Below, piece by piece: positions 1 to 20,000 of a stretch of DNA of 20,000 bases. The position numbers and the translations under genes were made by a program. The stretch covers positions 420,529 to 440,528 of the forward strand of contig JAYWIR010000070.1 in NCBI GenBank assembly GCA_036172245.1. Direction: 5' to 3'. Each line of letters begins with the position of its first letter. Position 1 is the stretch's first letter. The notes under the pieces were generated by a model that worked only from the letters and a program-made list of their open reading frames with translations, searched no databases and was not told the DNA's origin. This stretch comes from Raillietiella orientalis. Taxonomy: Eukaryota.

Positions 1-1506
1 GCAAGTGAAACTTGCCTTCCAGGAACGGGCCGATCGCCGTCTCGACTTTTTGGAGGCAGCTGGACCACGCTTCCGCAGGTGAGTAGTCCCCCAACAGCAC
101 ATCAAGGTACTTCAGGCACCTCGCCGTGGGTATCCCCAGACGGACCAAGTCCTGCTGCCCTGCCCACGCCGCACCTACTGGCACCACCGACGACTTCGCC
201 CTGTTGACCTGCAGTCCGGTCCCGCGGATGAGCAGATCGAAGAAGTCTCCGACCGCCTTCGCCGGGGTGGACATAGGTAACAGAAGCAGAAGGTCGTCGG
301 CATAGGCTGCTACGGCGGGCGTGCCGGGACACGAGCTCGGCAAGGAGGCCAAAGGCACCCTGTAGGCCTTCAGCACCAACTCAAAGTAGGTGCTGAAGAG
401 CAGGGGACTGAGGCTATCACCCTGCCTGGTGCCCCGCCGCACCGGCACGCCATACAACTTCTGAATACTGAAAGAGATGGAGATAATCGCATTCCGCCAG
501 CAAGAGCGCAGGTAGGTAATCAAGGAGGGTGGGAAGCCCATGCGACTTAGGAGCTCCAACAAAAGCTCCTGGTCAACACAGTCGAACGCCTTATGGAGAT
601 CGACTGCGAGCGCTAAGGCCCCCTTCCCCGCCCGGGAGTCCATTCCCTGCCCTGCTGGCGGCCCCAAAGTGGGGTTGCCGATTTTTCCTTTCTTTTCCTT
701 TTGACACCTCTGCGGGTGCATCCATGTGCTCGCGAAGAAGAGGTTGGCATCCATACTTCGCCCGGGAACATCATATGTCTGCTCCGGGCTAATAATGGAT
801 TCTGCCTCCTGCCCCAGACGCGAAGCCGATAGCCCGGCAACCAACTTGGCGTCCGTATTCACAATCGTGATCGGACGCCAGTTGTTCAAATTCCTAAGGT
901 CTCCCCCTTTCGGAAGGAGCCTCACTCTGGCTGACCGAAACGAGGCGGGAACATCGCTTCGTCTCGGATCAGCCTTGTCAGCTGAAGCAGCAGGGGTGCC
1001 AGCTCTTCCGCGAAGCTCTGATAGAACTCCGCGGGCAAGCCGTCTTCCCCTGGAGCTTTCCGCCTCTTGAGCCTTTTGATACCGGCGAGAATTTCGGCTG
1101 TGGTAAAAGGCTCATCGAGGCTTAACGACTTCTCCTCCCCTATTGCCGCGGCACCATCCAAAAGCAAGAGCCGAGAGGCATCTTGATCCGGAAGCGCCCT
1201 GGCGTAAAGGGAGGAATAATAACTCCGCACGAGATGCCGTACCGACGCCGGGGACGAACATTCCCGGCCCTGGTCGTCCAGCAAGCTGGCCGACCCGGAT
1301 TGCCAGGCTTGGCGTTCGTCCCCGGCACGGTACTCGGCCAGGCGACGGACATTAGGGGTTCTCTCGTACCTACGAGCCTGTAAATAGGCCCGATGGTTGC
1401 GAGCACCCTCGCCGAATCCGGGGGGCAGGCGATCCAGGAGGAACTGCTTGCAGAACTCCCGGACCGATTCCTTAAAAAGGTCCCAGTCCTGGAGATTCCG
1501 GAGCGT
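1..1506 (-). mobile_element. E1: L1/Tx1-like LINE, outermost host; only the ORF2 linker-RT part is visible and it runs off the left edge
   Basis: Minus-strand translation gives TLRNLQDWDLFK...KRRKAPGEDGLP...NWRPI...DLHKAFD...RQGDSLSPLLF...YADD. Similarity to E3 stops at ~1506, where the E2 5' UTR begins (junction uncertain, ~1497-1507). Confidence 0.92.
1..1506 (-). pseudogene. E1 ORF2 fragment (EN-RT linker and reverse transcriptase)
   Basis: One 1-nt deletion near 957 (IRDE|GDVPASF). Otherwise open to the window edge, with YADD intact at 293..304. Interrupted upstream by E2. Confidence 0.9.
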
Positions 1507-1510
1507 CGAG

Positions 1511-1533
1511 CGGACGTGTCTTTTCGTTGCTCC
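1511..1533 (+). promoter_or_regulatory. Conserved 5'-terminal motif CGGACGTG-N10-GCTCC (candidate internal promoter)
   Basis: The same two boxes occur at the 5' ends of E4 and E3 in otherwise dissimilar UTRs. Function is inferred. Confidence 0.55.
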
Positions 1534-1588
1534 TGAGTTCCATTTCCGTTGGTGCTTGTGCGTGGTGTGGGTGGAGGATTAGGCAGAA

Positions 1589-3232
1589 ATGCCTGATACC
1601 ACCACCGGTGAGGATCCGGGGGCGATGACCTCATTGCCCCTTGAGCAGATGGAGGTGGAGGCTCCCGCATCAGTGGAGGCACCCGCCAGCACGGATGCGC
1701 CCCCGGCCCTACCCAGGGCTTGGAACGCCGTGGCTGCGGCACCTACGCCAGCGGCTATGGCGGAAATGCGCGCTTACCTGGAGGAAAGGTATAACCCACC
1801 CCTCCTATATAAGGTAGGCGGTTTATATTCTTCCGAGAACACGCGCGCCTTTTCGCAGGCGATGCGCGTTCTCGGTGTACAGAAAGAGGAGCTTCTGGCT
1901 ATGTCCGTCAGAAGCGGGGGTCAATTTGTGGAAGTTATCTGCAAGGAGGCAACTCTTGCGCAAAGACTTCTGCGAACCCCCGTAATTATGGGCAGCCGGA
2001 GGCTTCTCCCCATTACTGAAGACCGGTCGGTGATCATTCACCTGACCGGTATCACGTTCCCGATGACGAAGGAGGCCGTCCGGAACGAATTAGAAAAATC
2101 TGCAACTGTCCACGCGCTGTGGGGAAAGCCTACTCGTTTTGTCGATTACGACGGGGTGCTTGGCGGCCTGGGTGCAGCGCGAGTGACGGTTCGCGAAGGA
2201 TGTGAGTTTCCCCACAAACTCAGCGTCAACGGTGAATCCGTTGACGTGTGGTACGTGGGGGAACCCAAGTATTGCGGCTGCTGCAGCAGCTTCGGTCACC
2301 TTAAAATGAGGTGTCCGAGCGTGCAGTGCCAGCAATGCAAACAAGCGGGGCACACCCGTCTGGTGTGCCCCCAAAACACAGTCCGCGTAGTGTCCGCGAA
2401 AAACGCGAGAATGCGCGCGGCTAAAAAGAGAAAGAAGCTGGCAACTCGTGCTGCTGCTAAGGAGGTCACATCCGCCACCAAGGCGAAGGCCAGCCCCGAG
2501 ACCCCGGCGAAAACCGCCGAAAAGGTCGAGGGCGAGGGTCAAGAGCCAGGGTGGCAGAAGGTCGACCCCAAGAAAAACTCCCATAAGAAGGGAAAGAACG
2601 TGGCGAAACGGAGCGAAACCGCTCTGCGTCGCGAAAAAATTAAAAGCTGCTGCGTCGTTGTAGAGCGGATTCCCGCCATCGACGAATGCGGCGCTAAAGA
2701 ACTCGCTGCTGCCCCTGCTCAACCCTCCGTTGACAAAGTCAACAAGGAGGGGAGCGAGGCGGCGGCGTCCGTCATCGAGCCCACGCTCGATGACGTCGCC
2801 TTCGAGCGCGCCGCGGAGGAGCTGGCTGCCTCGCTGCAGCCGGTTGCCCCCAAGGCTGGCAAGAAGGCCGTCAGGCGTCCGGCTTCCCCTCAAGAGTCGG
2901 CCACTTTCGACCCCGAGGTGAAGGCTGGAAACACAGCATCCATCTCCGCGGCACCCCGCAAAAAGGCAGGACGAAAGTCCACAATGCTCCGGAAGATCGT
3001 CTCCCCCGACGAAGGGGAAGAGATGGCTTCCGGTAGCGAAGGTGCCATGAGCGTGGGAAACTCCCGGGACCCGTCGCCCGAGAGAATTCCACGCTCGGAC
3101 ACGGAGGGGATGGTGAGGATGGAGGACGAACAGGTACCCCAGGCGCCTGAAGAGGCCTCCGTCCTCGTACCGATGGACCTGTCCTACACCTGCCCCGCGG
3201 CAGGTGCCGCGACGCCACTTTCCCAGCCATAA
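1589..3232 (+). CDS. E2 ORF1p, gag-like nucleic-acid-binding protein with two CCHC zinc knuckles (547 aa, intact)
   Basis: CGCCSSFGHLKMRC and CQQCKQAGHTRLVC (CX2CX4HX4C), basic low-complexity C-terminus, located directly upstream of the endonuclease ORF. Confidence 0.9.
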   Translation: MPDTTTGEDPGAMTSLPLEQMEVEAPASVEAPASTDAPPALPRAWNAVAAAPTPAAMAEMRAYLEERYNPPLLYKVGGLYSSENTRAFSQAMRVLGVQKEELLAMSVRSGGQFVEVICKEATLAQRLLRTPVIMGSRRLLPITEDRSVIIHLTGITFPMTKEAVRNELEKSATVHALWGKPTRFVDYDGVLGGLGAARVTVREGCEFPHKLSVNGESVDVWYVGEPKYCGCCSSFGHLKMRCPSVQCQQCKQAGHTRLVCPQNTVRVVSAKNARMRAAKKRKKLATRAAAKEVTSATKAKASPETPAKTAEKVEGEGQEPGWQKVDPKKNSHKKGKNVAKRSETALRREKIKSCCVVVERIPAIDECGAKELAAAPAQPSVDKVNKEGSEAAASVIEPTLDDVAFERAAEELAASLQPVAPKAGKKAVRRPASPQESATFDPEVKAGNTASISAAPRKKAGRKSTMLRKIVSPDEGEEMASGSEGAMSVGNSRDPSPERIPRSDTEGMVRMEDEQVPQAPEEASVLVPMDLSYTCPAAGAATPLSQP

Positions 3233-4118
3233 TGCCGGGAATCGCCTCTCCCCGTCGTCTTCTGATCACCTGTTGGAACGTGAACGGGCTAAGCGACGAC
3301 GGCAAGAGGCGTGACGTGGCCGCCACCCTGGCATCCTCCGACCTGGTGCTGCTGCAGGAGATCCATGTGATCTCCGCAGATCAAGCCCGGGAGATCGAAC
3401 GGATCTCGGATGGGCGGCTGTTGTGGCGTTGCGGCACCTCGAAATCAAGCGGTGTCGCCTTCCTGCTTCGGCCAGCCATCGAGACCGCAATAAAGGACGT
3501 TCGGTTCGATGACGCAGGTCGCGTCGGTCAGCTGACTCTCAGCTGGTCCGACTCTATCAACCTGGTCGTCACCAACCTATACGCTCCTAGCGGAAACAAC
3601 GCGTTGAGGGCGAAGGCAAGAAGGGAATTCTACCTTGCCCTGAGACGCGATTGGCTGACCGATGCAGGAGTTCGCAAAGCGGACCTGATTGCAGGTGATT
3701 TCAACCTGCGCCTGCTTTCAGGTGCGCCGGATACACTGAACAACCGCGTCAAAGAGTTGGGCGCAGAAATGAACGCGCGCAACTTGTTGGCCGGGGACAC
3801 GGCCATGGAAAGCAGCATCGATCACGTGTACCTTGACCAGCACCTATGATCTCGGGTGGGCAGGCGCGTAAAGGTACCATCCGAGCTGTCGGACCATGGT
3901 CGGATCATGTTCAAATGCGTCCGCGCGACAAGGGCCCCCCCTCGTCAGCGTGGCGTCTGCCAGGGGACTGGCTGAAGTTTCCCGACGCAATGGAGCACCT
4001 CCGCGAGTTTATTCGGAGCTTCAGGATGCAGACACTTCAGGACTGGGACCGCTTCAAGCGGTCGGTCCAGGAGTTTTGCGACCAGTTCCCCCTGCATCGC
4101 CTACCTGAGGGATTTGGG
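3232..4118 (+). pseudogene. E2 ORF2 N-terminal part (APE endonuclease and start of linker)
   Basis: WNVNG, LQE, NLYAP, GDFN, SIDH and SDH motifs. In-frame TGA at 3847..3849 and a frameshift near 3912. ATG overlaps the ORF1 stop (TAATG). Confidence 0.9.
4107..4118 (+). repeat. Target-site duplication of E3, left copy GAGGGATTTGGG
   Basis: Matches GAGGGAGTTGGG at 15617..15628 (11/12). Joining the flanks gives LPEGFG-KGAHNEKAYL, homologous to LPPGFGEGARNHRAYL in E1 and E3. Confidence 0.8.
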
Positions 4119-4336
4119 GTGTCCACCTGGGTACTCCCGTGGCGTTTATTGTATAAAACTCTACAAGAAAACGTGGTACAAGGCCCCACTAACGGCCACA
4201 CAACACCGGACCTGCCGGGACGCCGGGACGCAGCCCAGCGTGACGCTCTTCGCCAGTGGAGGGGGATGGGGATCAAAACAAAATTAAAAAATGAAAATAA
4301 AGGAAAACAAAAAGAGTTTGGAGGGAGGGGAAAGAA
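4119..4336 (-). terminator. E3 3' UTR: T-rich tract, stem-loops, AATAAA plus terminal hairpin
   Basis: Element sense ends AATAAA-CGCCACGGGAGTACCCAGGTG-GACAC and then the TSD. No poly(A). Confidence 0.7.
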
Positions 4337-7300
4337 TCACGTTCCACTTAGAGGAGGGTCCAACCCTCGCAGGATGCCCTCCAGGTCCATCTTCATGCTT
4401 CCCAGATGGGGCCATCTCGCTGCTCTCCGCATGAAGCAGACCGCATACGGGATGACATCCCTCACGTTGGCATCCACTTCTTCGTCGCGAATGTCGCTCC
4501 ATGCCGCCACGATGCCCCGGATATAGCAGAGGGCTGGGAGGGCTGCGGCAGGCTGCAGGGCGTCACGCACGAAGAGGGGCCGAAGAACGTCTCTGGGCGC
4601 TCTGCTTGTTGGGAGCCCGAAGGTCGTCCCGAACCGTTCCCACAGGGGACGGAGGGCAGCACAGTCAACTAGTAGGTGGGGAAGCGATTTGTGCTCTCCA
4701 CACCTTGCACACTCAGGCCTTACACTCCCCCGCATCCAGTGGAAGCGGCGCGCGTTGCAGGGTAGACCCCAGTGCAACAGTAGCAGCCCCGACTCTTGCC
4801 ACTTCAGGGGGAGAAGCCTGGATCCTATCAGATTGGGGGCCACTTGAGGTCATCCGTCGGGATGCCGAGCAGCTCGCCCCATCGACGAAGTCCACGAGGA
4901 AGGGTACTCGGGGTCGTGGCATCCGCCAGTTCTCCCATGGTCCAACCGCTCATCTTCTTCTCCTTGCCTGCAATTCGGCAGGAGACTTGCCACTTTGGCT
5001 TGCGGCTGCTTGTTAAAGCCCTTCGGAGAAAGGGCAGGGTCGAAGCTAGAGGGGTGATCTCCGCCCACGTGCTCCTGGCGGGACACTCCAGAGTAGTCCG
5101 CAGTGTGCAGCGGGCGTTGGGGCCGAATCGCAGGCGGTTCCAGTCCGGGGAAGTCTGGAGGTTCAACTTGGCCCACGTCGCAACTGATTCCTCCAGCCAG
5201 GCGAAGAAGTTGGCGGGGCCGCATACCGTCCAGCCGTTGTTTCTGACCAGGGCTTCCATGCGCCCAAGAAAAGGCCACATCTTCTCACCTTCCTGCCGGA
5301 GCACAGGAGGTACGACGCGAGTCCTTGCGTCCTGGACACACGGCTGGCGAGGATTCGGGCCGGAATGCACCAAGGGGTGCTCCATGACTTTGCTGCGATG
5401 GCGAGGGTGCGCCATCGCAGCTGTATTTCCAGGCGCTTTAGCGTCAGGAGGCCGAGACCGCCGTCCCGACGAGGAGCGCATAAATCATCCAGAGGCACAC
5501 GTGGCCTCCCGCTGCCCCAGAGGGCGATGCGGAGTATGTCTTTTGTCCTCTTTTTAATGTCACGGTGGACGGGGCACACAAAAAGCAGGGAACGGAGGAT
5601 GGAAGCCGCGAAGGCGTTCCACACCGCGGCCCGTTCCGGCAGAAGGAACTTGCATTCCAGGAACGGGCCGATTGCCAACTCTACCTTCTCGAGACGACCT
5701 GACCAGGCTTCTGCGAGGCAGAAGTCCCCCAACGGGACACCCAGGTACTTCAGGTACCTGGCCGTTGGGATCCCCAAGCGGATCCAGTCAGGCCGTCCGA
5801 CCCACGTCGCACCCACCGGTACGACCGACGACTTCGCCTTGTTTACCCGCAGTCCAGTCCCACGACTTAGCAGATCGAAGAAATCCTCGACTGCGGCTTC
5901 CGAGGCGGACATGGGCAGCATGAGCAGAAGATCGACGGCGTATGCTGCAACGGCAAGCGTGCCGGGGCACGAGCTGGGCAGGGCAGCCAAAGTCACCCTG
6001 TACGCTCTCAGCACCAACTCAAAGTAGGTGCTGAAGAGCAGGGGACTGAGGCTATCGCCCTGCCGTATGCCCCGCCGCACCTGCACGCCGAACACCTGTT
6101 GGCTGGAAAAGACGATGTTGACAATGGCATTGCGCCAGCATGAGCGCAGGTAGGAGAGAACGGAGCTTGGGAAGCCCATGCGACCCTGGAGCTCCAACAG
6201 TAGCTCCAGGTCTACGCAGTCGAACGCCTTGTGGAGATCGACCGCGATCGCTAGGGCTCCCTTCCCAGCCCGGGTATCTATTCCCAGCCCACCTGGCGGT
6301 TCCAAAGTGGGGTTGCCAATCTTTCCCCCTGTGTCGTTCAGGCAGCGCTGCACATGGAACCATGTGCTCTCGAAGAACAGGTTGGCATCCATACTTCGCC
6401 CGGGAACAGCGTACGTCTGCTCCGGGCTAATTATGGAGTCTGCCACCTGTCCTAGACGCAAAGCCCACAGTCCAGCGATCAGCTTGGCGTCCGTATTCAC
6501 GATTGTGATCGGACGCCAATTGCCCAAGAATCTCAGGTCTCCTCCCTTCGGGAGGAGCCTCACACGGGCTGACCGAAACGAGGCGGGAACGTCGCCTTCG
6601 TCTCGGATCAGCCCGGTCAACTGAAGCACCAGGGGTGCCAGCTCTGCCGCGAAACATTGAAAGAATTCCGCAGGCAGGCCGTCTTACCCTGGCGCCTTTC
6701 GCCTCTTGAGCCTTTTAAAACCGGCGAGAATTTCACCGGTAGAAAAAGGCTCGTCGAGGCTGATCTTCTCCTCTTCCCCTATTGCCGGGGCTCCATCCGA
6801 AAGCAGGAGCCGCGAGGCGTTCCGCTCTGGGGGTGCCCTAGCGTAGAAAGAGGAGTAATAACGTCGCACGAGGTGCCTGATCGCGGGTGGTGCGGATCGC
6901 TCCCGGCCCTGGTCGTCCAGCAAGCTGGCCGACCCGGATTGCCAGGCTTGGCGTTCGGCCCCGGCTCGATATTCCGCGAGGCGACGGACATTCGGGGTCC
7001 TCTCGTACCGGCGGGCCTGTAGATAAGCCCGATGGTTCCGAGCCCCCTCCCCGAATCCGGGGGGCAGGCGGTGCAGGGGAAACTCCTCGCAGAACTCGCG
7101 GAACGAGGCCTTGAAGAGGTCCCAGTCTTGGAGACTGCGGAGGGTGACACCTCTTAGGATTTCGCGAAGGTGTTCTTTCGCACCTGTGAGCTGCGTCCAG
7201 TCCCCAGGCAGCCGCCACGCCCTGGACGGGGGTCCTTTGTCGCGCGGGCAAACCTCGGCGATGATCCTGGAATGGTTCGACAGCGTCGACGCAACTTTTC

Positions 7301-7754
7301 CCCGTTTGCAAACCCGCGAGCACAGGTCGACATCCAGGAAGAAGTGGTCGATGCTGCGGTCCATTCCCTCCGCGTCTGCCAACAAGTTGCGCGTGCGCAT
7401 GGCAGCGCAAAACTCGTTGGCCGTGCGTTCTTGTGCTTCGGGCTCACCTGACAGCAGACGGAGATTGAAGTCTCCAGCTATCAGGTGTGCCTTCCGCACA
7501 TTCGTGTCGGCCAGCCAATCGCGCTTCAAGGTTTCCAGCAGCCTGGTACGGTCGCTGTATCCCCCTTTTCCGCTCGGGGCGTACACGTTCGTGACGATCA
7601 ATTCGATCGAGTCGGACCAGCTGAGAATCAGCTGACCGACCCTACCGTCGTTATCGAAGCGTACGCCCTTCACGGCAGCGTCGATGGCCGGCTTGACGAA
7701 GAACGCGACCCAGCAGGTGTTGCGGGCGCCGCATCGCCAATACAGTCGACCCCC
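4337..7754 (-). pseudogene. E3 ORF2 (endonuclease remainder, RT, CCHC)
   Basis: ORF-track pieces 6684..7988, 5163..6629, 4828..5481 and 4337..4843 chain together. TAA at 6684..6686, frameshifts near 5270 and 4838, catalytic motif mutated to YAVD (5931..5942). Confidence 0.92.
7742..7754 (+). repeat. Target-site duplication of E4, left copy ACAGTCGACCCCC
   Basis: Identical 13-mer at 13579..13591. Excision restores EIEAIAGGRLYWRC in frame on the minus strand. Confidence 0.93.
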
Positions 7755-7763
7755 TCCATTGTT

Positions 7764-7785
7764 CGGACGTGCATTCTTGCGCTCC
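7764..7785 (+). promoter_or_regulatory. Conserved 5'-terminal motif CGGACGTG-N9-GCTCC
   Basis: Starts at +10 from the TSD-defined 5' end. Shared with E2 and E3. Confidence 0.55.
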
Positions 7786-7844
7786 GTCTTTGGTGCTTCT
7801 TTGCGGTTGTTCCTTTTGGGTGCGGTGGGATTTTTCATTTGGAA

Positions 7845-9782
7845 ATGAAGCCAGTGCCCGCAGAAATGGAGGTGGAGGAATCCCCCTGCGCCGCAGGACC
7901 TTCTTCGGGAGGAGCGGAAGCCTCCACCGATCGTCCCTCGCCTCCAGCGAGAAGTTTTGCCGCCGTTGCTAAGGCAGCGGCGGCTCACGGAGCCCCACCC
8001 GACGAGGCAGAGCTGCGGGCGTACGCCGCGAGCGGCTACAACCCCCCTCTGGCCTACAAGGTCAGTGCCGCGTACCGGGATGGGACGGGCAACCAGCTCT
8101 GGAGCGAGCTAGAACGCGTAGGGGTCCGAGAGGACGATCTCCTGGCAATTATGCCAGTGAGCGCGGTAGGCCATTGGGAGGTGCACTGCAAGGATGCAGC
8201 CCTCGTCCAGCGCCTACTGCGAACCCCCCTGAACATCAGGGGTAAGGAGGTCGTCCCCTCGGCCCTGGATCAATCGTTCGTGGTCCAGCTCTCGGGAATT
8301 AGGCCGAGAATAACGGACCGCGACATCATTGTTGCACTCGAGGCGTTCGCCACAGTGCACGCGATGTGGAGGCGCGCGAACCCGATCGATAAAGTCCCGC
8401 GCCTCTCCTGCGGACTTGCGACGGCGCGCGTCACCATGGACGACCGGAGGCTCATGCCTTCGCAGATCCTCCTCGGTGACGTCGTCGTCTATCTCCGGTT
8501 TGCCGGGCAAACCCCCGCTTGCGGCAACTGCGGGAAGGAGGGCCACCGTCCGCGGAAGTGCCCAACACGCAGTTGCCGATACTGTAAGCTGCTCGGCCAC
8601 TCGATTAACGAGTGCGCCGAGCTGAAACGAAAGAGGAGGGCGAGAAACCCCCCCGCAACATCGCCGTCCGCGCCGACTCCATCCGCCCCGTCGTCGGGGA
8701 AGAAATCAGGCGCGAACGAGCATTCTCAGCGGAGAAGTGAAAAGTCCGCTTGCGCGGGCGATTCTTGGAGCAATGCTCCACAAAAACCCGCGCGAAAGGA
8801 CAAGGAGCTCCTCCAGGCTGCTTCAGTAAAGCCCCGAGCGACCCAGCCCGCCGATAACATCGGGCAGGCTGCAAAAATAGCACCGCCGCTTCCGTCCGCT
8901 CTCGCTCCGGAGCGAAATAGCGGTGGCACGCCCGGGAAGACCACCGGAGCGTCGAAAAAGGGGTCGCGCGCCCCTTTGCCCGCGACAGGCAAGCCGGCCA
9001 CGGCGGGCCGAACGCCAGCAAAGGCTGAAAAGCCTCGCGCGACACCCGAGAATCCCGCCACTGTGCCCGCACCTCCCGGTAAGGAGGTGCAGAAGGCAGA
9101 CGTGGCGAAGGAGACACTGGCCTCAGTCGCCGTATCCGAGGCCTTGGAAAGGATGCGAAGGACCCTGGAAGCCCTCGCGCCCAACCGGGGCAAACAGGAA
9201 GGCGGCGAGGATGGCTGGACCTTCGTCGGGGGAAAGAAGGAGCGCAAACCGCGCGATCCTTCCCACTTCCCGATCCAAAAGGTAGGCGGGGTGAAGAGGC
9301 AACCCCGCGCGCCCAGAAAGGCGCAAGGACAAGCCTCTGCTGCCGCCGCGCGCGCCGCCGCAAACACCCGCGGCGAGAGGGGAGCTGCCGAAGCCGTGAC
9401 CCCGAAAGGGGGATCGGCGACGAAGGCACCCTCGAAGAGTGCTGGACCAGCTCCGGGCTGCCAGCAAACAAAGAGGCAGGCGAAACGCCCGCCGCCGCGC
9501 GCGCGCAATTCGGACTCCGAGGTGGAGTCCGAGGGCAGCGCTAAGGCTCGCCAAGCCCCGGTCAAGGCCAGGGCTGCGCGCAAGCCAAAACTTGCCAGGC
9601 AAGAGCCTGATGCCGGGAACGGTTCCCGATGCTCCTCGGAGCCCGAGGCAATGGTCCTCGACTCGACCAAGCCGGCCGCGAGCGGCGCGGCGGGGACAGG
9701 AAGCGCTTGCGCTACCTCATCCGCCGTGCTCCCGGCTGATGCCTCGCCGGACGGGGCGAGGAACGCACCTCCATGTCCGTAG
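7845..9782 (+). CDS. E4 ORF1p with two CCHC zinc knuckles (645 aa, intact)
   Basis: The first ATG inside the element is 7845; the track start at 7485 lies in host E3 sequence. CGNCGKEGHRPRKC and CRYCKLLGHSINEC; YNPPLAYKV is homologous to E2 and E3 ORF1. Confidence 0.88.
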   Translation: MKPVPAEMEVEESPCAAGPSSGGAEASTDRPSPPARSFAAVAKAAAAHGAPPDEAELRAYAASGYNPPLAYKVSAAYRDGTGNQLWSELERVGVREDDLLAIMPVSAVGHWEVHCKDAALVQRLLRTPLNIRGKEVVPSALDQSFVVQLSGIRPRITDRDIIVALEAFATVHAMWRRANPIDKVPRLSCGLATARVTMDDRRLMPSQILLGDVVVYLRFAGQTPACGNCGKEGHRPRKCPTRSCRYCKLLGHSINECAELKRKRRARNPPATSPSAPTPSAPSSGKKSGANEHSQRRSEKSACAGDSWSNAPQKPARKDKELLQAASVKPRATQPADNIGQAAKIAPPLPSALAPERNSGGTPGKTTGASKKGSRAPLPATGKPATAGRTPAKAEKPRATPENPATVPAPPGKEVQKADVAKETLASVAVSEALERMRRTLEALAPNRGKQEGGEDGWTFVGGKKERKPRDPSHFPIQKVGGVKRQPRAPRKAQGQASAAAARAAANTRGERGAAEAVTPKGGSATKAPSKSAGPAPGCQQTKRQAKRPPPRARNSDSEVESEGSAKARQAPVKARAARKPKLARQEPDAGNGSRCSSEPEAMVLDSTKPAASGAAGTGSACATSSAVLPADASPDGARNAPPCP

Positions 9783-9787
9783 CAGCA

Positions 9788-12700
9788 ATGCGCGGTCTCG
9801 CTTCTTCCCGTCGCGTCCGAGTGGCCTGTTGGAACGTCAACGGGCTGCAGGACAACGAGAAGAGGCGATTGGTTGCCAACGTCTTGCGCGACTTCGATCT
9901 GGCCCTGCTGCAGGAGATTCACGCACTCTCCGAGCAGCAAGCGGCCGATCTGCAAGTTCGCGCAGGCGGGACGCTCCATTGGAGGTCAGGCTCCCAGAAT
10001 ACCTGCGGAGTCGCATTCCTTGTCCGGGGCAGGGTGGCGGGAGCGGTGCGGAGCGTTTGTTTCGACGAGGAAGGTCGTGTGGGCCAACTTGTTCTCAAGT
10101 GGTCCGAATCGATCAACCTTGTCGTCACGAACGTGTACGCGCCGAGCGGCTCCGCGCGTCACACCGAGAAACTGGAGTTTTTCGAGAGACTGCGCGACCG
10201 CTGGCTCAGCAACTCCGGCCCCGACGTGGCTCACCTCGTAGCCGGGGACTTCAACGTCCACGCGCTATCGGAGGAGTCTCACCGTCGCCGGGAGAAACGG
10301 CTGGTGAACGAGGTGTGCGCGTCGGTGCACGCCTCGAATTTGCTGGCCGACGATCCCGGAATGCGTGCTTTGCCGGACCATGTGTTCCTCGACGATCACC
10401 TGCATTGCCGGGTGGGTCGAAGAGGTCCCGTGCCGTCCGAGCTTTCCGACCACTACAGGCTGGAGTTTGAGCTACTCCCGTCTGGCAAGGGCCCACCGAC
10501 GAACGTCTGGAGGTTGCCGGCCGACTGGTTGAGAAATCCGGTGGCTGCGGAGCACCTCCGCCAGCATCTTCGGACCTTTGCCGTTCGAGAGCTCGTGGAC
10601 TGGGACGATCTGAAAAGATCGGTCCGCGAGTTCTGCAGCCGGTTCCCCTTGCGCCTGCTTCACCGTGGCTTCGAAGAAGGCGTGGCCAACAGCAGAGAGT
10701 TTCTGCAGGCCCGCCAATTCTTCCGATGCCCGGACGTCCGGTACCTTGCGGAGTACAAGGCCAAGGCCGAGCGCCAGGTCTAGCAGTCAGGAGTAGCTTG
10801 TCTGCTCGACGACCAGGGCCTGGAGTGCTCGGGCGCGGCCGAAGTTCGCCGCCTCCTAAAGCGCTATTACTCCTTGTTGTACGCTAGGAAGCCGACGGAA
10901 CGCAGTCTCTCGGAGCTGCTTCTGCCGGCGGATTCCCCGGCGGTCGACGAGGAGGAACGCGCCACTCTTGACTTGCCCTTCACGGCGGAAGAAGTGTCTT
11001 CCGCCATAGCGGGCCTCAAGAAGCGCAAGGCGCCAGGTGAGGATGGTCTGCCTGCGGAGTTCTTCCAGTGCTTCGCGGCGGAACTCATCCCTTTGGTACT
11101 GAGGCTTTCTGCGCTGATGCGAGAGACGGGCAATGTCCCGGCCTCGTTTCGCTCAGCAAGGGTGCGTCTGTTGCCGAAAGGCGGAGACATGCGCCATTGA
11201 AGCAACTGGCGTCCCATCACCTTGGTGAATGCGGACGTCAAGTTGTTCTCCAGGCTGTGGGTCGCGCGCCTGGGCAGGATCGCTGGATCCGTGGTAAGTC
11301 CGGAGCAGTCTTACGCTGTTCCCGGGCGGTCCATGGAGGCGAACCTGTTCTTCGCGCGCACGTGGCTCGAACTGCAACGCTGCGTGGCGCACGACAGCCA
11401 GGCAACCGCGTCTGCGGCTGCCGAGGCTAGGCGTAGCTGCATTCGGCCTGGGGAAGCGCCGGGTGCCTTGGCGGTCGCGGTCGATCTCCGCAAGGCGTTC
11501 GATTGCGTAAATCAGGATCTCCTGCTGGAGCTCCTGGAACGCCTCGGTCTCCCGGTGCACCTCGTGGCGTATTTGCGCGCTTGCTGGCGCCACGCGCTCA
11601 TTTCCATCTCTTTTAGCGGCTGCCACGTGTACGGCGTGCCGGTGCGGCGGGACATCAGGCAGGGCGACAGCTTAAGCCCGTTGCTCTTCAGCATCTTCTT
11701 TGAGTTGGTGCTGAGGGCGTACAGGCTGACGCTGGCCAACCTGCCGAGCTCTTGTCCAGGAACGCCGTCCGTGGCGGCCTATGCTGACGACCTGCTCCTC
11801 CTCTTACCCATGACCACCCCGGCATCCAGTCTCGAGGAGTTCTTCGAGCTGATTCGCCGGGGAGCGGGCATGAGCGTAAACCGGAGCAAGAGCGTGGTCG
11901 TACCTATTGGTGCGGCGTGGGAGGGGCAGTCCGACTGGATCCGCCTGGGGATCCCGACCGCTTCCTCCGTGCAATATCTGGGCGCTTCGCTGGGGAACAT
12001 CAGCCCAATGGAAGTGTGGTCGGACTGCCTTCGGAAGGCTTCGAATGCCCTGAGCCCGTTCCACCATGGCAGGTTCGTCCTGCCGGAGCGGGCCACGATA
12101 TGGAACACATTCGTTGCCCCTCTCTTGCGCCCCCAGCTTTTTGTTTGCCCGCCCCCCTACTCGGCCAAGCTCCAGGCGCACAGCCTGTTAAGGAACGCTC
12201 TTTGGGGACCTGCGAGGTCCAGGATCCGCCTCAAAGACTTGGCGGCTCCGCGTCGGGATGCTGGCTTAGGCATCCTGACGCTGGAGAGAATCGAGCTGCA
12301 GGTGCAGCTTCGGATGTTGGCCCTGTGCGCCAACCTTTGGTCCACTCCGTGGTGCGCTCCCGCGCGCCTGCTTCTGCGGCGCTGCACAGGCAGCGATGGA
12401 CTTCTGTCGCTGCGGCCGCACACGGAGCGCGCCACGAGAAGCTTCGGTTCCCCCTTGAAACCGCTGTATCGGCTCCTGGAAGCCCAGGGATGGATCTCCT
12501 GCCGCCCAACGAACTTTCAAGCCTGGCGGCAGGAACCGTTGCATGGCTGGGCAAAGCACCAGGATGTTTCCCTCCTGGAACTCCGTTGCGCTCACCTCTC
12601 CCCGTATTGCACGGTGGATGAGGTGTGCAACAGCCAGGAGAAGTGGACCCGCCTGGCCGTCACCCCCCTCGAAGACGCACTGTCAGCCCTCAGGGCAAGA

Positions 12701-13350
12701 GATGACAGTTGCGAACCGGCGAGATGGGAGGTCGCCTGCACCATCGCAGGAACAACGCGACCTATTGGCGGCTGGAAGACTTGCGAGCTGGCGGACGCCG
12801 CCACGCCTCGCCACGTTCCGAAGGGACTCCTTCGGTGGAGCGAACACTTAAGTGTGCCCCCCGAAGAACTTGTGGTCCCTCCCTCTTGTCTGAACACTTC
12901 TGTGTTCCCCCTTTCGTGGAAGCAGGATGTGATTATGCTGGTGCATTGGGGTTTTCACTCCAACCAGCGCACGAACCTTGTTTCCGGGGGAGTCGTCTCC
13001 CCAAACTGTAAGCGGTGCGGGGAAGTGGAAACGCTCTCGCACCTGCTCCTGGACTGTGGTGCCCTTCTAGGACTCTGGCGGAGGCTGGCCTCAGCTCTCC
13101 TGCACCAGGGGGACACCGCGAGGGAGTTGATGCGCCGCTTCTTCACGCCAGGCGGCCTGTCATTGGGTGCTGTCGTTGCAACCGTGTGTTGCACCCGCGC
13201 CATCGCAAGGCCCACCGAGAGTTGGAGAAGCTGGCCATCCTTCGTCAGCCCACCGGATTAGCCAGCGCAAACATGTCGTCGGCTGCCCAGTGGGCCCATC
13301 TGCCACAGGGCGTAAGGAGAGAGATCGCCGGCATCCATCGCCGGTTTTGA
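9788..13350 (+). pseudogene. E4 ORF2: APE endonuclease, reverse transcriptase, C-terminal CCHC; three lesions
   Basis: One frame with TAG at 10781..10783 and TGA at 11198..11200. YADD at 11780..11791; CKRC...HLLLDC. Frameshift near 13205, after which AAQWAHL...EIAGI matches the E3 and E5 C-termini. Alternative ATG at 9773. Confidence 0.92.
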
Positions 13351-13578
13351 AAGGAAGGAACGGATTTACCAAAGACCCCTGTCCCCTGCCCTCCAGATTT
13401 TTCTTTTATTTTTTTATATAGTAGTGTGTTTGTGGTCCCTTCCCTCCCGTTCCGGACTTTCGGCATACCGACCTGCGTGTCGGGGATCCCACCCCCTTCG
13501 TCTCTTGTTTTCCCCTTTGTCCGGGAACCCTGTTCCCGGATAGTTTATAATAAACGCCCCGGCGCACCCGGGTGACAA
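13351..13578 (+). terminator. E4 3' UTR: T-rich tract, perfect 9-bp hairpin, AATAAA plus terminal hairpin
   Basis: TCCGGGAAC-CCT-GTTCCCGGA at 13520..13540; AATAAA at 13549..13554; CGCCCCGGCGCACCCGGGTG at 13555..13574; ACAA and then the TSD. Confidence 0.72.
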
Positions 13579-13591
13579 ACAGTCGACCCCC
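13579..13591 (+). repeat. Target-site duplication of E4, right copy
   Basis: ACAGTCGACCCCC, identical to 7742..7754. Confidence 0.93.
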
Positions 13592-13768
13592 CGCGATCGC
13601 CTCGATCTCCTGGACGTCTGCCGAGGTGATCACGTGGATCTCCTGCAGCAGGGCCAGGTCGAAGTCACGCAGGGTGTCGGCCGTATCTCGTCTGTTGCCG
13701 TCGTCGCGCAGCCCGTTGACGTTCCAACTGGCCACGCGGATTCGACGGCGACAGGCGAGCCCAGGTGT
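13579..13768 (-). pseudogene. E3 ORF2 N-terminus (endonuclease WNVNG...LQE); start codon position reads ACA
   Basis: TPGLACRRRIRVASWNVNGLRDD...LLQEIH...IAGGRL aligns with E2 MPGIASPRRLLITCWNVNG. Confidence 0.88.
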
Positions 13769-15519
13769 TATTCCTGGGAAATCGGCTGTGCGGCGTCCGC
13801 CATCTGTTGGGGCGGGACGCTAGGTGGAGGAGGAGGGACAGGTGCCTCTAGCACCTGGTCACCCTATTCCATCGGTGACGGCGCGTCGGGCGGGTCACCC
13901 TCCGGTGGGGTCGCGCCTACCTGCTGGCCCTTCTCCATAGGGGTGGGCTCCTCAGGGTCCGCGACGACAGGGGGGATTTCGACCCCCTGCTCACCCTCCT
14001 TCATGGGGGTGTCGTGCTCGACGGCTTCCGCGCGTGGGAGCTCCCCCTCCGGGATTCCCACGCTGCCGGCGACTTCCTGCTTCTCCTCCTCGCTCGTGGA
14101 GGGGAGGCGCTTCCTCTGCTTTTGGGAGTTGCGTCCCGTCTTCCGGGTGGGTGCCTCCGAGGAGGAGGATGCACTTCCGGCCCCCAGTTCTAACTCACCT
14201 GCGGGGGCCTTCTTTACTGGAGCCGGGCTTCGCACGGCCTTGCGCGAGGGGTTCTCACGCTCAGCCAGCGTGGCTGCGAGCTCCTCCGCCGCCTTCGCGA
14301 AGGCGGCGTCCTCGCCGGCGGCGAGCGCGTCGCGCGTCTTACCCTCTGTGCAAACAGAGGGTTCGACGTCGCGAACCTCGGGCGCGGCGGAAAAGGCGAG
14401 GGGAGGCTCGTCGCTCCGGGTGGCAGCCTCGGGAACGCTGATGCGCTCCAGTGCTACCGAGCACTCGCGGAGAGTTTGAGATCGCGGACCAGGTTTTTTC
14501 GCCTTCGCGACCGTGTTTTTCTCCGCCTTTTCTTGTGAACCCTTTTTGGGTTCTTTTGTGGCCTTTACCAGCTTCCATCCTTCTTCCTCGCCCGCGTCTT
14601 TCGCTGTTTTTTCCGCCGCCGCCTGGGTTGGAGGAGGAGGAGAAGGCTGCTGGGGCCGGCCATTCTCGCGATGAGGTCTTTCGACCTTATTCATCTTTTT
14701 CGCCTGTGCCTTTTTAACAGCAGGTGGCACAGGGGTGGGGCGTTTAGGGCACACATGACGGACGTGTCCCTTTTCCCCGCACAAGTGGCACTCGATATTC
14801 GGGCACCGCATGCGCACATGCCGTACTGCATCGCAGTAGCCACAATAGCGGGGTTTTCCCACGTACCAGAGGTCGACGGGCTTCTTCCCGACCTCCAGTT
14901 TGTGGGGTAACCCAGCACCCTCGTTCACAGTGACACGCGCTGCTGCCTGGCCACCAAAGAGGCTGTTATAGCTATCAAAAATGGTTGGCTTAGGCCACAG
15001 CGCGTGCACATCTCCGTATTTCCTCTATTCCGCGTTCACCGCAGAGCGCGTCATGCGGTTCGTGATCCCCGTTAGATGGACCACTACGGAGCGGTCCATG
15101 CTAACGGATAGGATCTTTCGGCCAGCCACATTCAGCGGGGTGTTGATGAGGCGCTGCGCTAGGGCTACGTCTTTGCAGACGACCTCCACGCGTTGCCCCC
15201 CGCTGAGTACGGCGAGGCCGTCAAGATCCTCCTCACGCACGGGGAATTCCTGTAGTGCCTTGCTAAAGGCACGCGCGGTGCGACCGTCGAACAGGTTTCC
15301 CACCTTATAAACCAGGGATGGTTTATATCCGGAGGCCCTGTAGGCCGCTTGCTCAGCCAAGGTTTCCGCGCTCGGCGCGGCGACCATGGCGCTCCAGCTC
15401 CTCGTCTTGGGCGACGAGGGCGATTCCGGGGCGGGTGCCCCTGATTCTGTAGGTCGTGGGAGGGGGCTAGCCTCCCTCACGCCTACCTCCATCGTGGTGT
15501 CCTCTGGCAGCGATGCCAT
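13768..15519 (-). pseudogene. E3 ORF1 with two CCHC knuckles and two in-frame stops
   Basis: ATG at 15519. TAG at 15025..15027 and 13864..13866 in the same frame. Natural end AQPISQE* resembles E2 ATPLSQP*. CGYCDAVRHVRMRC and CHLCGEKGHVRHVC. Confidence 0.88.
13850..14012 (-). repeat. Degenerate 66-bp (22-aa) tandem repeat in the E3 ORF1 C-terminus
   Basis: TPMKEGEQGV / TPMEKGQQV / SPME*GDQV, with ATGs at 14004, 13938 and 13872, exactly 66 nt apart. Confidence 0.75.
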
Positions 15520-15583
15520 CGGACACCAACGATGTGAAAAAGCACACACTGAACCAAAAAGCCGCTTTCCGCTGCTCGTTCGC

Positions 15584-15606
15584 GGAGCGCCGGAAAAACA
15601 CGTCCG
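15584..15606 (-). promoter_or_regulatory. Conserved 5'-terminal motif CGGACGTG-N10-GCTCC
   Basis: Starts at +11 from the TSD-defined E3 5' end (15616). Confidence 0.55.
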
Positions 15607-15616
15607 CTCTCGAGGA

Positions 15617-15628
15617 GAGGGAGTTGGG
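15617..15628 (+). repeat. Target-site duplication of E3, right copy GAGGGAGTTGGG
   Basis: 11/12 match to 4107..4118. Confidence 0.8.
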
Positions 15629-16351
15629 AAGGGGGCTCATAACGAAAAAGCTTATCTATAGGAACGTCGTAACGCGAGAACCATCAACTTCCGTCGCCTG
15701 GCCGACTACAAAGCCGAGGCTGAGAGCCAAGCTTGGAAGTCCGGACCACACACCCTGCTGGACAGCCAGGACCGCAAACACTCGTCCCCGTCAGCGATTC
15801 GACACATGGTGAGAAAATTTTATTCCTTTCTATATGCCAGGTCTCCTCTCAAGCAGGACGCCTCGCGACTGTTGCTCCCGGAAGGAGCCCCGGTCATAGG
15901 GGAGGAAAAGAAAGAATGCCTCGACGAGCCATTTGAAAACGATGAAATCGTCACCGCGATGAAAGGGCTAAAGAAAAGAAAGGCACCAGGAGAGAAAGGC
16001 TTGCCCGCGGAGTTTTCTCAAGGCTTCGCGGCAGAGTTAACCCCTTTGGTGCACAGATTGACACAGCTGATCCTGGAAGAAGGCGATGTTCCCGCCTCGT
16101 TCCGGTCAGCTAGGATGAGGCTCCTTCCTAAGGGAGGAGACCTCCTTAAGCAGACATACGCTGTTCCTAGGCGAAGTATGGAGGCTCACATGTTCCTCGC
16201 CAGCACATGGTTCTATACGCAAAAAGAAAGTAAAGAACGCAAGGGATCTCTCGGTTACCTCCATTTAAGAGTGACAGCTGGTCAGAATGGGAAAAGCCTA
16301 GCGGGTAAAGGTGCCCTAGCGATCGCAGTCGATCTTCATAAAGCGTTCGAT
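15617..16351 (+). pseudogene. E2 ORF2 middle part (linker to RT motif DLHKAFD), interrupted by E5
   Basis: KGAHNEKAYL*...KKRKAPGEKGLP...LLPKGGDL^QTYAVP...VDLHKAFD. TAG at 15659..15661 and a ~108-nt in-frame deletion near 16145. Confidence 0.87.
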
Positions 16352-16568
16352 TTTCACCAGGATTTCGCCAGGGCGTTAATTGTTTAATAAACCTCTACAA
16401 AGACGTGCAATCGCTGGACCATTGCTCCAGCCACGAAGGAAGAAACACAGAGCCTGCCGGGTCACCGGTTCGCAGATCGGTACGGTCCACCACGGCAGCA
16501 AGAGGAAGGAGGAAAAACAAGAAACAAAACAAAAACGAAAACAAAAGTTACGAGGGTAAGGAAAGGGA
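16352..16568 (-). terminator. E5 3' UTR with T-rich tract, stem-loops, AATTAA plus terminal hairpin
   Basis: Element sense ends AATTAA-CGCCCTGGCGAAATCCTGGTG followed by only 2-4 A. Confidence 0.68.
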
Positions 16569-19500
16569 TCACAGTTGCTGGTGGGGCCTTTGCATCCTTT
16601 GCAGGATGCCGGCAAGCTCCTTCTGTATTCCTGGATCCAGGTGGGGCCATCGAGACGCCCTCCTTAGGAACTCGAAGGCTGGCTGGATGGCACCCTGGTG
16701 GCATTGTCCTCCCGTAGCCTTGCTCTAGGCGCTGACGATCCGGCGTAGGCAGCACAAAGCTGCTAACGAGGCCGCAGGCCGAAGGGCGTCGGCAACGAAG
16801 AGGGCTTTCAGAGCGTCCCTGGGGTTGCCGCAGGGGATTCCGATGCCCGCGGCAAAGCCGAACCAAAGGGGTCGAAGGGCAACACAATCCACTAGAAGGT
16901 GGGGGAGGGACTCCCGTTCCCCGCACCTTACACAATTGGGATCCACCGCTCCCCAGGTCCAGTGGTGTCGACGAACGTTGCAGGGGAGTACCCAGTGCTG
17001 AAACAGGAATGCCGACTCTTGCCATTTTAAGAAGAGGGTGGAGGTGTTCATTAGTACCGGGGGCTACTTCAAACCATCAATGGGAACGTCGAGCAGCAAG
17101 CCACAGCATAGAAGTCCATGGGAAGGCGTACTAGGGGTGGCAGCGAAAGTCAGCTGACCTTTCTTCCACTATCCTATCTACTTCTCCTTCCCGAAGATTG
17201 TTACTGTAACCTCCCACTTCGCCGAAACATCGCTGTCCAGATCTTCCATTAGGGAGGGCAGCGCAGCAGCGAGGGGGTTCTTCCTGCCCACGCTCTTTTC
17301 TTTGGATCCGCCAGGATGTCGCAGAGCGTGCAACTTCTGTAACCCGCAAACAGGAACCTTCGTTCCTGTTGGGAGGGTTGCATGCCGAACTGTCCCCACG
17401 TTCGAACGGTTTCCTGCAACCAGGCACTACCGTTCAAAGGGCGACAGGTGACCAATCCTGGGTTTTCCCGGTACAGCGCAGCCACCCTCCGTAGCTGGAG
17501 TCCGCATCGGTTGACGCGACGATGGAGTAGAAGAAACGACGTCAGTCCCGTCTTGCCAGTGGCTTGCTGGAGAAGGAGACGTGCAGGGACGCACCAACAG
17601 GTGTACCACAACTCTGGAACCAGTGCCGAAATTCGGAACTGGAGCTGAAGCTTCAGCCGCTCCAGCGTCAGGAGGCTTAGACCACCGTCCTGACGAGGAG
17701 CACACAAGTCCTTTAAGCGGACTCGGGCCCTCCTGTTGCCCCAAAGGGCGATACGAAAGATGTCCTTCGTCCGATTTTTAATTCTCTCTGTGGGGGCAAA
17801 CAAAAAGCAGCAAGCGGAGGAGAGGAGCCGCGAACGTGTTCCAAACTGCGGCCCGTTCAGGCAGGGAAAACCTGCTGCCTCGGAACGAACCGATCGCCGT
17901 CTCGACTTTTTGGAGGGAGCCCGACCACACTTCCGCAGGGGAGTAGTCCCCCAACGGCAGACCAATGTTTTTGAAGTACGTCACCGTGGAGATCCCCAAA
18001 CGGACCCAGTCCTGCTTCCCTGCCCACGCCGCACCGAATGGCAATACGGACGACTTCTCCCTGTTCACCGTAAGTCCGGTTCCCCGATGCAGCAGGTCCA
18101 ACAATTCCTCGACCGATGCAGCCGGGATGGACATAGGGAGCAGCAGCAGAAGGTCGTGCGCGTACGCTAAAACGGCCGGCGTATCGGCACAGTCGTGCGG
18201 CAGGTGCGTCAGAGTCTCCCTGTACGTTCTCAGTACCAACTCAAAGTAGGTGCTGAAGAGGAAGGGGAACAGACTGTCTCCCTGCCGGATCCCACGCCGC
18301 ACCGGCACGTCGTGCACAATCTGCCCGCTGAAAGAAACGTTGATTAGCGCGTCGCGCCAGCAGGAGCGCACATAGGCCACTAATAAGGCCAGGAAGCCAA
18401 GCGTTCCAGAATCTCCAGAAGGAGATTCTGGTCGACGCAATCGAATGCTTTCCGCAAGTCGATTGCGACCGCAAGGGCTGCCTCTCCCACCCGACCATCC
18501 AATCCCTTGCCGGCGCACGCACGGGAATTCCGGCTGCGCACCAAGCTTCTTTCATGTTGGAGCTCGAACCAGGTGGAAGCGTGGAACAGCTTCGCCTCCA
18601 TGCTTCGCCCGGGAACAGCATATGACTGTTTCCGGCTTCAGAAGATGTTGGCAACCCGTCCTAGACGCTCTGCCAAAAGCTTAGTCAGCAGCTTGACGTC
18701 CGCATTCACTACTGTGATAAGACGTCAGTTGTTCATGCTCCTCAGATCTCCTCCCTTAGGGAGAAGCCGCACCTTTGCCGAACGAAACGAGGCGAGAACG
18801 TCACCTGTCTCGCGTATCAGCAAGGTGAGTTGCTGTACCAAGGAAGAAAGGTCAGCCGCGAAAGTTTGGTAAAACTCCGCGGGCAGGCCGTCCTCCCTTG
18901 GAGCCTTTCGCTTCTTGAGTTTTACGATGGCCGAGAGGATCTCGTCCATCGTGAAAGGCTCGTCGAGGGTCTTTCTCTCCTTCTCCCGATCGCTGGAGAG
19001 CCTACCGGAATCATAGGTCGTGAGACGTTCCTCTCGAAAGGTGCCCTAGCATACAGGGAGGAGTAGTAACTTCGCAGCATGCCGCGGATTTAAGCAAGTG
19101 CCGAGTGCTCCTGGCCCTCATCGTCCTGCAAGCTTGCCGATCCGGACTGCCAGGCTTGCCTCTCGGCTCCCGCTTTGTATTCCGCCAGCCTGCGGATGTC
19201 GGGGGTCCTGACGAAACGACGGGCCTGCAGGTAGGCTTGTTCGATACGAACCGCGGTCCAAAAACCCGTAGATAGGCGGTGCAGAGGGAACTGTTCGCAG
19301 AACTCCTGGACCGACCGCTTGAAGCGGTCCCAATCCTGGAGTGTCCGCAGCCTGAAGTTCCGTATGAACGTGCGGAGATGCTCCGCCGCGTTCGGAAGCT
19401 TCAGCCAGTTTCCTGGGAGACGCCACGCCGACAAGGGGGGGCCCCTGTCGCGCGGATGGATCTCGACGACTAGCGGGCGATGGTCGGACAGCTCGCACGG

Positions 19501-20000
19501 TAACTTGCCGCGCTTGCCCACGCGAATGCACAGGTGCTTGTCAAGAAACACGTGGTCAATGCTGTCTTCCATCCCCGGTGCAATGGCCAACCAATTTCAG
19601 GTATGCACCGCAATGCACACCTCGTTGACCAGGTCACGCTCGGCATTCTGCCCATCTGGTTTCAGGCGAACGTTGAAATCGCCTGCAACCAGATGCGCAT
19701 TGCGCACGCCTGCTTTGGTCAGCCAGTCTCGCCGGAAGGCAAGGAAAAACTCTTTCCTCGCCCTCCTGGTCATCACGACCACGCCGTTCGGTGCGTACAC
19801 GTTCGTAACGATCAGATCGATCGAGTCGGACCACCTGAGAGTCAGCTGGCCGACACGACCGTGATCGTCAAACCGCACGCCCCGAGCCGCGGCCTCGACG
19901 GCTGTCCGGAGCAGGTAGGCGACACCGCAACTTTTCGCTCTCCCACACCTGTACCATAGCCGCCCTCAGGAGATCCGTTCGATCCCTGACGCTCGTAAAG
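16569..20000 (-). pseudogene. E5 ORF2, heavily disrupted
   Basis: NVYAP, GDFN, SIDH, SDH, KAFD, QGD, YAHD (18153..18164), CVRC...HLLVDC. About 13 stops and frameshifts by manual translation. Confidence 0.9.

Follow-up and report, generated by a model that had tools for sequence, protein, structure and literature searches.

Introduction

Long interspersed nuclear elements (LINEs) that insert into their own copies build clusters that define centromeres in several green algae. Zepp (Chlorella and Coccomyxa) and ZeppL (Chlamydomonas and its relatives) nest in earlier copies and form clusters composed almost only of themselves, as do the copies described below. They are presented as L1-clade LINEs that target their own earlier copies, each chromosome having a single cluster located at its centromere (PMC8226300; PMC3446292). 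The ZeppL clusters described in PMC9940879 measure 51-320 kb and consist of ZeppL for about 60%. One preprint describes such clusters as bound by CENH3, down to the case of one newly inserted copy (bioRxiv 10.1101/2025.03.28.645958), and a later one terms such elements centrophilic (bioRxiv 10.64898/2025.12.07.692804). Here, we describe a stretch of 20,000 nucleotides from Raillietiella orientalis (contig JAYWIR010000070.1, positions 420,529 to 440,528; hereafter the window) that is fully tiled by five related LINE copies, E1 to E5, nested in one another. The best reading of this arrangement is that the window belongs to a Zepp/ZeppL-like cluster built by one clade, the likeness being one of architecture.

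Two other kinds of LINEs offer partial parallels. Tx1L of Xenopus lies within another mobile element and, like the elements described here, combines an apurinic-like endonuclease (APE) and a reverse transcriptase (RT) with a CCHC-type first open reading frame (ORF1). However, Tx1-type elements use one defined target sequence, whereas the four targets in the window differ, lie at four codons and share no motif. In HeT-A, TART and TAHRE of Drosophila, several LINE lineages occupy one chromosomal niche in arrays free of other DNA, as in the window. Their arrays run head-to-tail in one orientation at chromosome ends, whereas the copies described here are nested and alternate in strand instead of standing in tandem.

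Five LINE copies nested in one another

A tblastn search of the window with ORF1 and ORF2 of E4 gave 21 high-scoring segment pairs (HSPs) that, with the reading of the junctions, resolve into five copies on alternating strands and leave no other DNA in the 20,000 bases. E4, being the most intact copy, served as the yardstick, and codons of host elements are numbered from its Met. It is the innermost copy and is complete (7755-13578, plus strand, 5824 nt). It lies within E3, a minus-strand copy that it splits into a 3' part (4119-7754, with the 3' untranslated region (UTR) from 4119 to ~4508 and ORF2 codons ~67-1145) and a 5' part (13579-15616, with ORF2 codons 1 to ~67, an ORF1 that carries one stop and two CCHC knuckles, and a full-length 5' end whose motif CGGACGTG stands at 15599-15606 in minus-strand reading). 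E3 in turn splits the plus-strand copy E2 into a 5' part (1507-4118), which has a full-length 5' end with CGGACGTG at 1511-1518, an ORF1 (1589-3232) with two CCHC knuckles and ORF2 codons 1 to ~298, and a continuation (15617-16351; ORF2 codons ~298-577) that stops abruptly at the 3' end of E5; after un-nesting, a one-frame HSP runs over the join. E5 (16352-20000, minus strand), the most decayed of the five, comprises a 3' UTR and ORF2 codons ~66-1144 and is cut off by the right end of the window. The outermost copy, E1 (1-1506, minus strand), was recognized by tblastn and by an RVT_1 match (E=6e-21) and spans ORF2 codons ~270-770, interrupted by one frameshift. On the left it continues beyond the window with its 3' part, and its 5' part has to lie past the right end.

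Two of the four nestings are visible from both sides and are bounded by target site duplications (TSDs). The TSD of E4 in E3 is perfect (13/13), with ACAGTCGACCCCC at 7742-7754 and an identical copy at 13579-13591. That of E3 in E2 is near-perfect (11/12), with GAGGGATTTGGG at 4107-4118 and GAGGGAGTTGGG at 15617-15628. With the insert and a single copy of the TSD taken out, ORF2 of E3 aligns to ORF2 of E4 in one frame over codons 8-925, and ORF2 of E2 also aligns in one frame, over codons 225-577. By eye, the E2 peptide ..LPEGFG / KGAHNEKAYL.. is colinear with ..LPPGFG / EGARNHRAYL.. of E3. The two remaining nestings are each deduced from a single junction and are well motivated. The homology of E1 to E3, its closest relative, ends at 1506 and the 5' terminal motif of E2 starts immediately after, while ORF2 of E2 is broken after ..AVDLHKAFD at 16351 and directly adjoined there by the end of the 3' terminal motif of E5.

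Nesting itself is certain, and the copies arrived in the order E1, then E2, then E3 and E5, then E4. This is the nest that an earlier, sequence-only reading of the window had drawn (E1 containing E2, which contains E3 and E5, with E4 inside E3). The tblastn map and the junctions uphold its two nestings backed by TSDs with frame restoration, its two others marked by an element end abutting a broken host ORF (at 1506/1507 and 16351/16352), and its statement that no non-element DNA occurs in 20 kb, since the five copies cover all 20,000 bases. Two other accounts of the map were rejected. E1 and E5 are not the halves of one element, since both cover ORF2 codons ~270-770. Furthermore, the strand alternation does not result from twin priming or inversion, because neighbouring pieces belong to different lineages.

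The whole window holds no tRNA and no Rfam match, and its sole tandem array is 34 nt long and lies inside the 3' UTR of E5. GC content varies from 0.56 to 0.67 per kb and the CpG observed/expected ratio from 0.88 to 1.02, i.e. without CpG depletion. The second piece of E2 (15629-16351) has a GC content of only 52%, versus 58-63% in every other piece; its frame is nonetheless open over 241 codons.

Target sites and orientation

The four insertions hit ORF2 of their hosts at codons ~67, ~270, ~298 and ~577 of 1162, close to the positions given in the sequence-only reading (62, 265, 293 and 570 of ~1190). Each of the four inserts lies on the strand opposite to that of its direct host, as that reading had also stated, so that the strands run -,+,-,+,- along the window. 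The probability of four antisense insertions out of four is 0.0625 one-sided, which is the 1/16 already given with the earlier claim, and 0.125 two-sided, if 'all sense' would also count. From first to last, the sites extend over 26% of the element (p = 0.058 for the range of four uniform points). The probability that all four lie in the first half of ORF2 is 0.008, for a region picked after the data had been seen. Both the antisense and the first-half patterns involve four events and were defined post hoc.

No motif is shared by the four targets, which are ACAGTCGACCCCC, GAGGGA(T/G)TTGGG, a sequence that reaches the insertion point with GCGTTCGAT and another that reaches it with CCGGAGCGT, at four different codons. 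Of the three known 3'-side targets, one contains the tetranucleotide TCGA, namely the TSD of E4 (7746-7749 and 13583-13586), and another directly adjoins it, next to the 3' end of E5 (16347-16350). Over the window TCGA recurs about every 198 nt, and the association, noticed post hoc, may reflect either a slight preference of the endonuclease or chance.

Divergence and decay of the five copies

DNA identity among the five copies ranges from 65 to 81%. Direct host-insert pairs fall within 65-71% (69-71% for E1/E2, ~70% over a long segment for E2/E3, 68-70% for E3/E4 and 70% for E2/E5), and the highest identity is found between E1 and E3, with up to 81% over 1.5 kb. For single-frame stretches of the RT, dS is 0.6-1.9 and dN/dS 0.19-0.50, the shortest comparisons covering 55-89 codons. 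These values indicate that the copies diverged as functional lineages before inserting. Judged from these comparisons, each of the five copies represents a deeply diverged lineage of its own, and they are not the decay products of one element.

Decay is unequal among the copies. E4 carries two stops and no frameshift, E3 two stops and two frameshifts, E2 two stops and one frameshift, and E1 no stop and one frameshift, whereas E5 has accumulated seven stops and at least four frameshifts. By its nesting E5 is younger than its host E2, yet its decay is further advanced (conditional binomial p = 0.04). The element from which it was copied may already have been defective, or E5 may have been mobilized in trans.

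Structure of the elements

In E4, a 5' UTR of ~90 nt precedes an ORF1 that is open throughout (7845-9782, 645 aa), an ORF2 of 1162 codons (9773-13261) with two in-frame stops, at 10781 and 11198, and a 3' UTR of ~317 nt. Six of the 13 long ORF translations from both strands matched a Pfam family, two being Exo_endo_phos and four RVT_1, one of the four below the curated cut-off; the seven others had no match. The scores are E=2e-13 to 2e-17 for Exo_endo_phos and E=4e-20 to 6e-21 for RVT_1. The N-terminal part of E4 ORF2 matches an apurinic-like endonuclease (PF03372, E=1.9e-16, residues 20-227), which is also found in E2, and the same ORF matches a reverse transcriptase (RVT_1, E=3e-20). All three visible ORF2 C-termini (E3, E4 and E5) carry a CX2CX7HX4C motif; the match of ORF2 to zf-RVT reaches only E=0.012, under the Pfam cut-off.

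Each of the three visible ORF1s encodes two CX2CX4HX4C knuckles, and the Pfam scan gave no significant match for ORF1. The region before the knuckles was modelled with AlphaFold from three sequences, with a mean pLDDT of only 56.7. The best Foldseek hits of this low-confidence model are tandem-RRM proteins (E=3.9e-5, TM 0.22-0.36). These hits suggest a tandem RRM-like region, which we treat as a lead. An ORF1 protein that combines an RRM with CCHC knuckles is called type I ORF1p.

The two ORFs overlap slightly. In E2 they meet in TAATG (3230-3234), where stop and start have one base in common, and in E4 the overlap is 10 nt (9773-9782), the ATG of ORF2 lying 7 nt ahead of the ORF1 stop in another frame. 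This overlap suggests that ORF2 could be translated by termination-reinitiation.

The ends of the elements are well conserved. All three visible 5' ends (E2, E3 and E4) are full length and have in common CGGACGTG, within ~5-10 nt of the 5' terminus (5' ends 1507-1518, 7755-7771 and 15599-15616). The bases ahead of it vary and number 4-10, with a TCC start in E3 and E4. No 5'-truncated insert was found in the window, which is unusual for LINEs. At the other extremity, E4 ends with AATAAACGCC..GG..CC.GGTGACAA (13549-13578, plus strand), a motif that is also terminal in the minus-strand copies E3 (at 4119) and E5 (at 16352); in alignments, the three visible 3' ends all stop at AATAAACGCC..GG..CC.GGTG(A/G)A(C)A. 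None of these three ends carries an A run that would form a poly(A) or simple-repeat tail. We do not claim a 3' terminal hairpin, because the folds are no better than those of shuffled sequences (z -0.90, -1.50 and +0.25) and the pairs are all invariant.

Relatives of the clade

On its domains and protein matches, the element is filed under APE-type retrotransposons without long terminal repeats, in the L1 superfamily. The superfamily is meant in a broad sense, because the relatives are remote: the best named ones are plant APE, RT and zf-RVT (L1-type) proteins with 24-25% identity, and the best solved structure, human L1 ORF2p (1.2e-12), is closely followed by R2 (2.3e-11).

An exhaustive profile search retrieved 32,839 reverse-transcriptase relatives at E<=0.001, of which only two proteins, P0001 (619 aa) and P0004 (132 aa), are close. 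Their amino-acid identity to the best-matching copy of the window is 66-71%. Since neither is more than 71% identical to any of these copies, they add two or more further lineages to this clade. Two word-index protein searches gave, respectively, two matches, of which one was close (P0001, at 59% identity), and 11 matches, all with at most 30% identity. A third candidate, P0003, was rejected, its high score coming from internal repeats in a protein of another family. With P0001 as the query, an atlas search returned only generic RVT_1 clusters; an atlas cluster named 'Transposon TX1' (score 0.88) is a lead only. The clade thus appears to be almost absent from public protein data.

At the DNA level, scans of genome contigs (125 pattern matches) and viral contigs (136 pattern matches) gave no relative. 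The scan of metagenome contigs gave six loci from 203 pattern matches, all with 25-26% identity; they belong to a different family and were not used. The only run listed as sharing words with the window is a public DNA run, X1 (word share 0.10), and no RNA run was listed. X1 contains 726 related contigs with 80-99+% identity that together cover all 30 bins of the window. By decreasing identity band they number 25, 96, 169 and 436, with 25 contigs at 99% or more and 436 under 90%. X1 is therefore at least one further data set in which the clade has many, diverse copies. Matches across paralogous copies prevail among the listed joints and loose ends of X1, and some of the loose ends are AT-rich; these probably come from other organisms that match the A-rich tracts of the 3' UTR.

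Discussion

By the nesting that marks Zepp and ZeppL, the window compares well with their clusters, with four nestings in 20 kb of which 100% is element DNA. The base composition is also similar, Zepp being reported at 61% GC (PMC3446292) versus 56-67% per kb here. Furthermore, several lineages occur in one nest here, and several ZeppL families are reported to coexist in one genome (PMC8226300). Clustering is favoured by the five separately evolving lineages that meet in one 20-kb stretch holding nothing else. Regional targeting, probably based on chromatin, is the explanation that would best fit this meeting, and we hold it with about equal confidence and doubt. The cluster would have grown by successive insertions into copies already there. 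The duplications and the intact termini point to ordinary target-primed reverse transcription, each event producing a target duplication of 12-13 bp. Since the insertion points have no sequence in common, what attracts new copies would most likely be a regional property, for instance the chromatin of the cluster (centromeric, as in Zepp and ZeppL), and not a DNA site. For the same reason, any targeting would be regional and not site-specific in the manner of Tx1. The claim of the sequence-only reading that this family targets its own relatives has partial support: self-nesting is borne out and, with five lineages and no other DNA, fits a clade that accumulates in its relatives, whereas the specificity of Tx1-type elements that it had evoked finds no common motif in its favour.

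Several points weigh against a Zepp/ZeppL-like cluster. A genome or a region merely saturated with this LINE would look alike within 20 kb. The nestings of E2 in E1 and of E5 in E2 each have one junction in the window, their far sides lying outside, and the best named relatives are the plant proteins cited above. The 3' ends described here are without poly(A), whereas Zepp carries poly(A) tails. The several deeply diverged lineages within one nest are also unlike Zepp. Moreover, PMC8226300 reports Zepp arrays as consisting mostly of 5'-truncated 3' ends, whereas the three visible 5' ends of the window are full length and truncation is not frequent here. The elements also differ in size, near-full-length ZeppL exceeding 8 kb (8334 bp for one insertion reported in bioRxiv 10.1101/2025.03.28.645958) versus 5.8 kb here.

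The saturation just mentioned underlies the main rival of regional targeting, namely a passive pile-up. The region or the genome would be so rich in LINEs that random insertions hit older copies, or insertions elsewhere would have been purged, and both orientation and position would result from chance. We consider this possible, if doubtful. The two-sided orientation test (p = 0.125) and the range test (p = 0.058) are compatible with chance, the target sites are without a common motif, and the clade is multi-copy in X1 (726 contigs, all 30 bins covered). However, five lineages with no other repeat class and no unique DNA in 20 kb are more than is usual in a repeat graveyard, a comparison that is qualitative.

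Strand alternation, for its part, is most likely due to chance or, at most, to a moderate bias. If the antisense excess is real, its nearest known cause would be the bias of human L1 in transcribed genes, where elements end up antisense more often than sense. This bias is reported to be made at insertion, through transcription-coupled repair (PMC5717806). It is statistical and relative to host genes; it is not a rule and is not aimed at other L1 copies. In the window, a comparable bias might arise if insertion intermediates were removed when they lie on the transcribed strand of a host copy that is expressed. From the junctions, the priming nick would have been on the sense (non-template) strand of the host copy in all four events, which is the direction predicted by the transcription-coupled model.

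The sequence-only reading went further and proposed that the family recognizes its relatives and inserts only antisense, in the 5' half of ORF2, thereby either finding a safe harbour or disabling its competitors. We find this improbable. It has in its favour the four antisense insertions out of four, their location at ORF2 codons ~67-577 with the p of 0.008 for the first half (a region defined post hoc), and the three full-length 5' ends. However, the patterns were chosen after looking and concern four events, with a one-sided p of 0.0625. There is neither a common target sequence nor a homologous host position that an endonuclease or an RNA could recognize, and hosts that are 65-81% identical to the inserts would be a poor basis for guidance by homology. 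In addition, among the titles that full-text literature searches listed, none described such a rule. The same small credence goes to its strongest form, in which at least five coexisting lineages would recognize relatives and integrate full-length and strictly antisense in the central part of the host element, thereby producing obligate inverted nests. Both the safe harbour and the disabling of competitors are speculation.

Survivorship could also produce an antisense excess if insertions occurred in both orientations and sense nestings, being direct repeats, collapsed by recombination into chimeric copies while antisense ones stayed visible. This would be expected from how direct and inverted repeats generally behave, and long homologous stretches do exist (up to 81% identity over 1.5 kb for E1/E3). 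However, the direct host-insert pairs, at 65-71% identity, are low for homologous recombination and the window contains no chimeric copy, so that we judge this explanation very unlikely. Lastly, a nest made partly unreal by mis-joined repeats in the assembly hardly deserves consideration: the region is wholly repetitive and the junctions 1506/1507 and 16351/16352 are without a second side in the window, but the two other junction pairs have TSDs and restored host frames, and these two breaks coincide precisely with conserved ends of elements, which is not expected of random mis-joins.

Conclusions

The window is a clean and well-resolved example of nesting, and no new mechanism emerges from it. 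Its architecture is of a known kind, whereas the lineage is very divergent, with only about 25% identity to any named protein. Finding the architecture of Zepp and ZeppL in such a divergent clade would mean that self-nesting either evolved convergently or goes back much further than assumed. The clade is further distinguished by the lack of poly(A), by full-length insertions and by the coexistence of several lineages. If strand alternation were a rule, it would represent a new kind of target choice by a retrotransposon and a ready source of double-stranded RNA. Obligate inverted nests, if they are real, could feed silencing by double-stranded RNA or mark a chromosomal domain.

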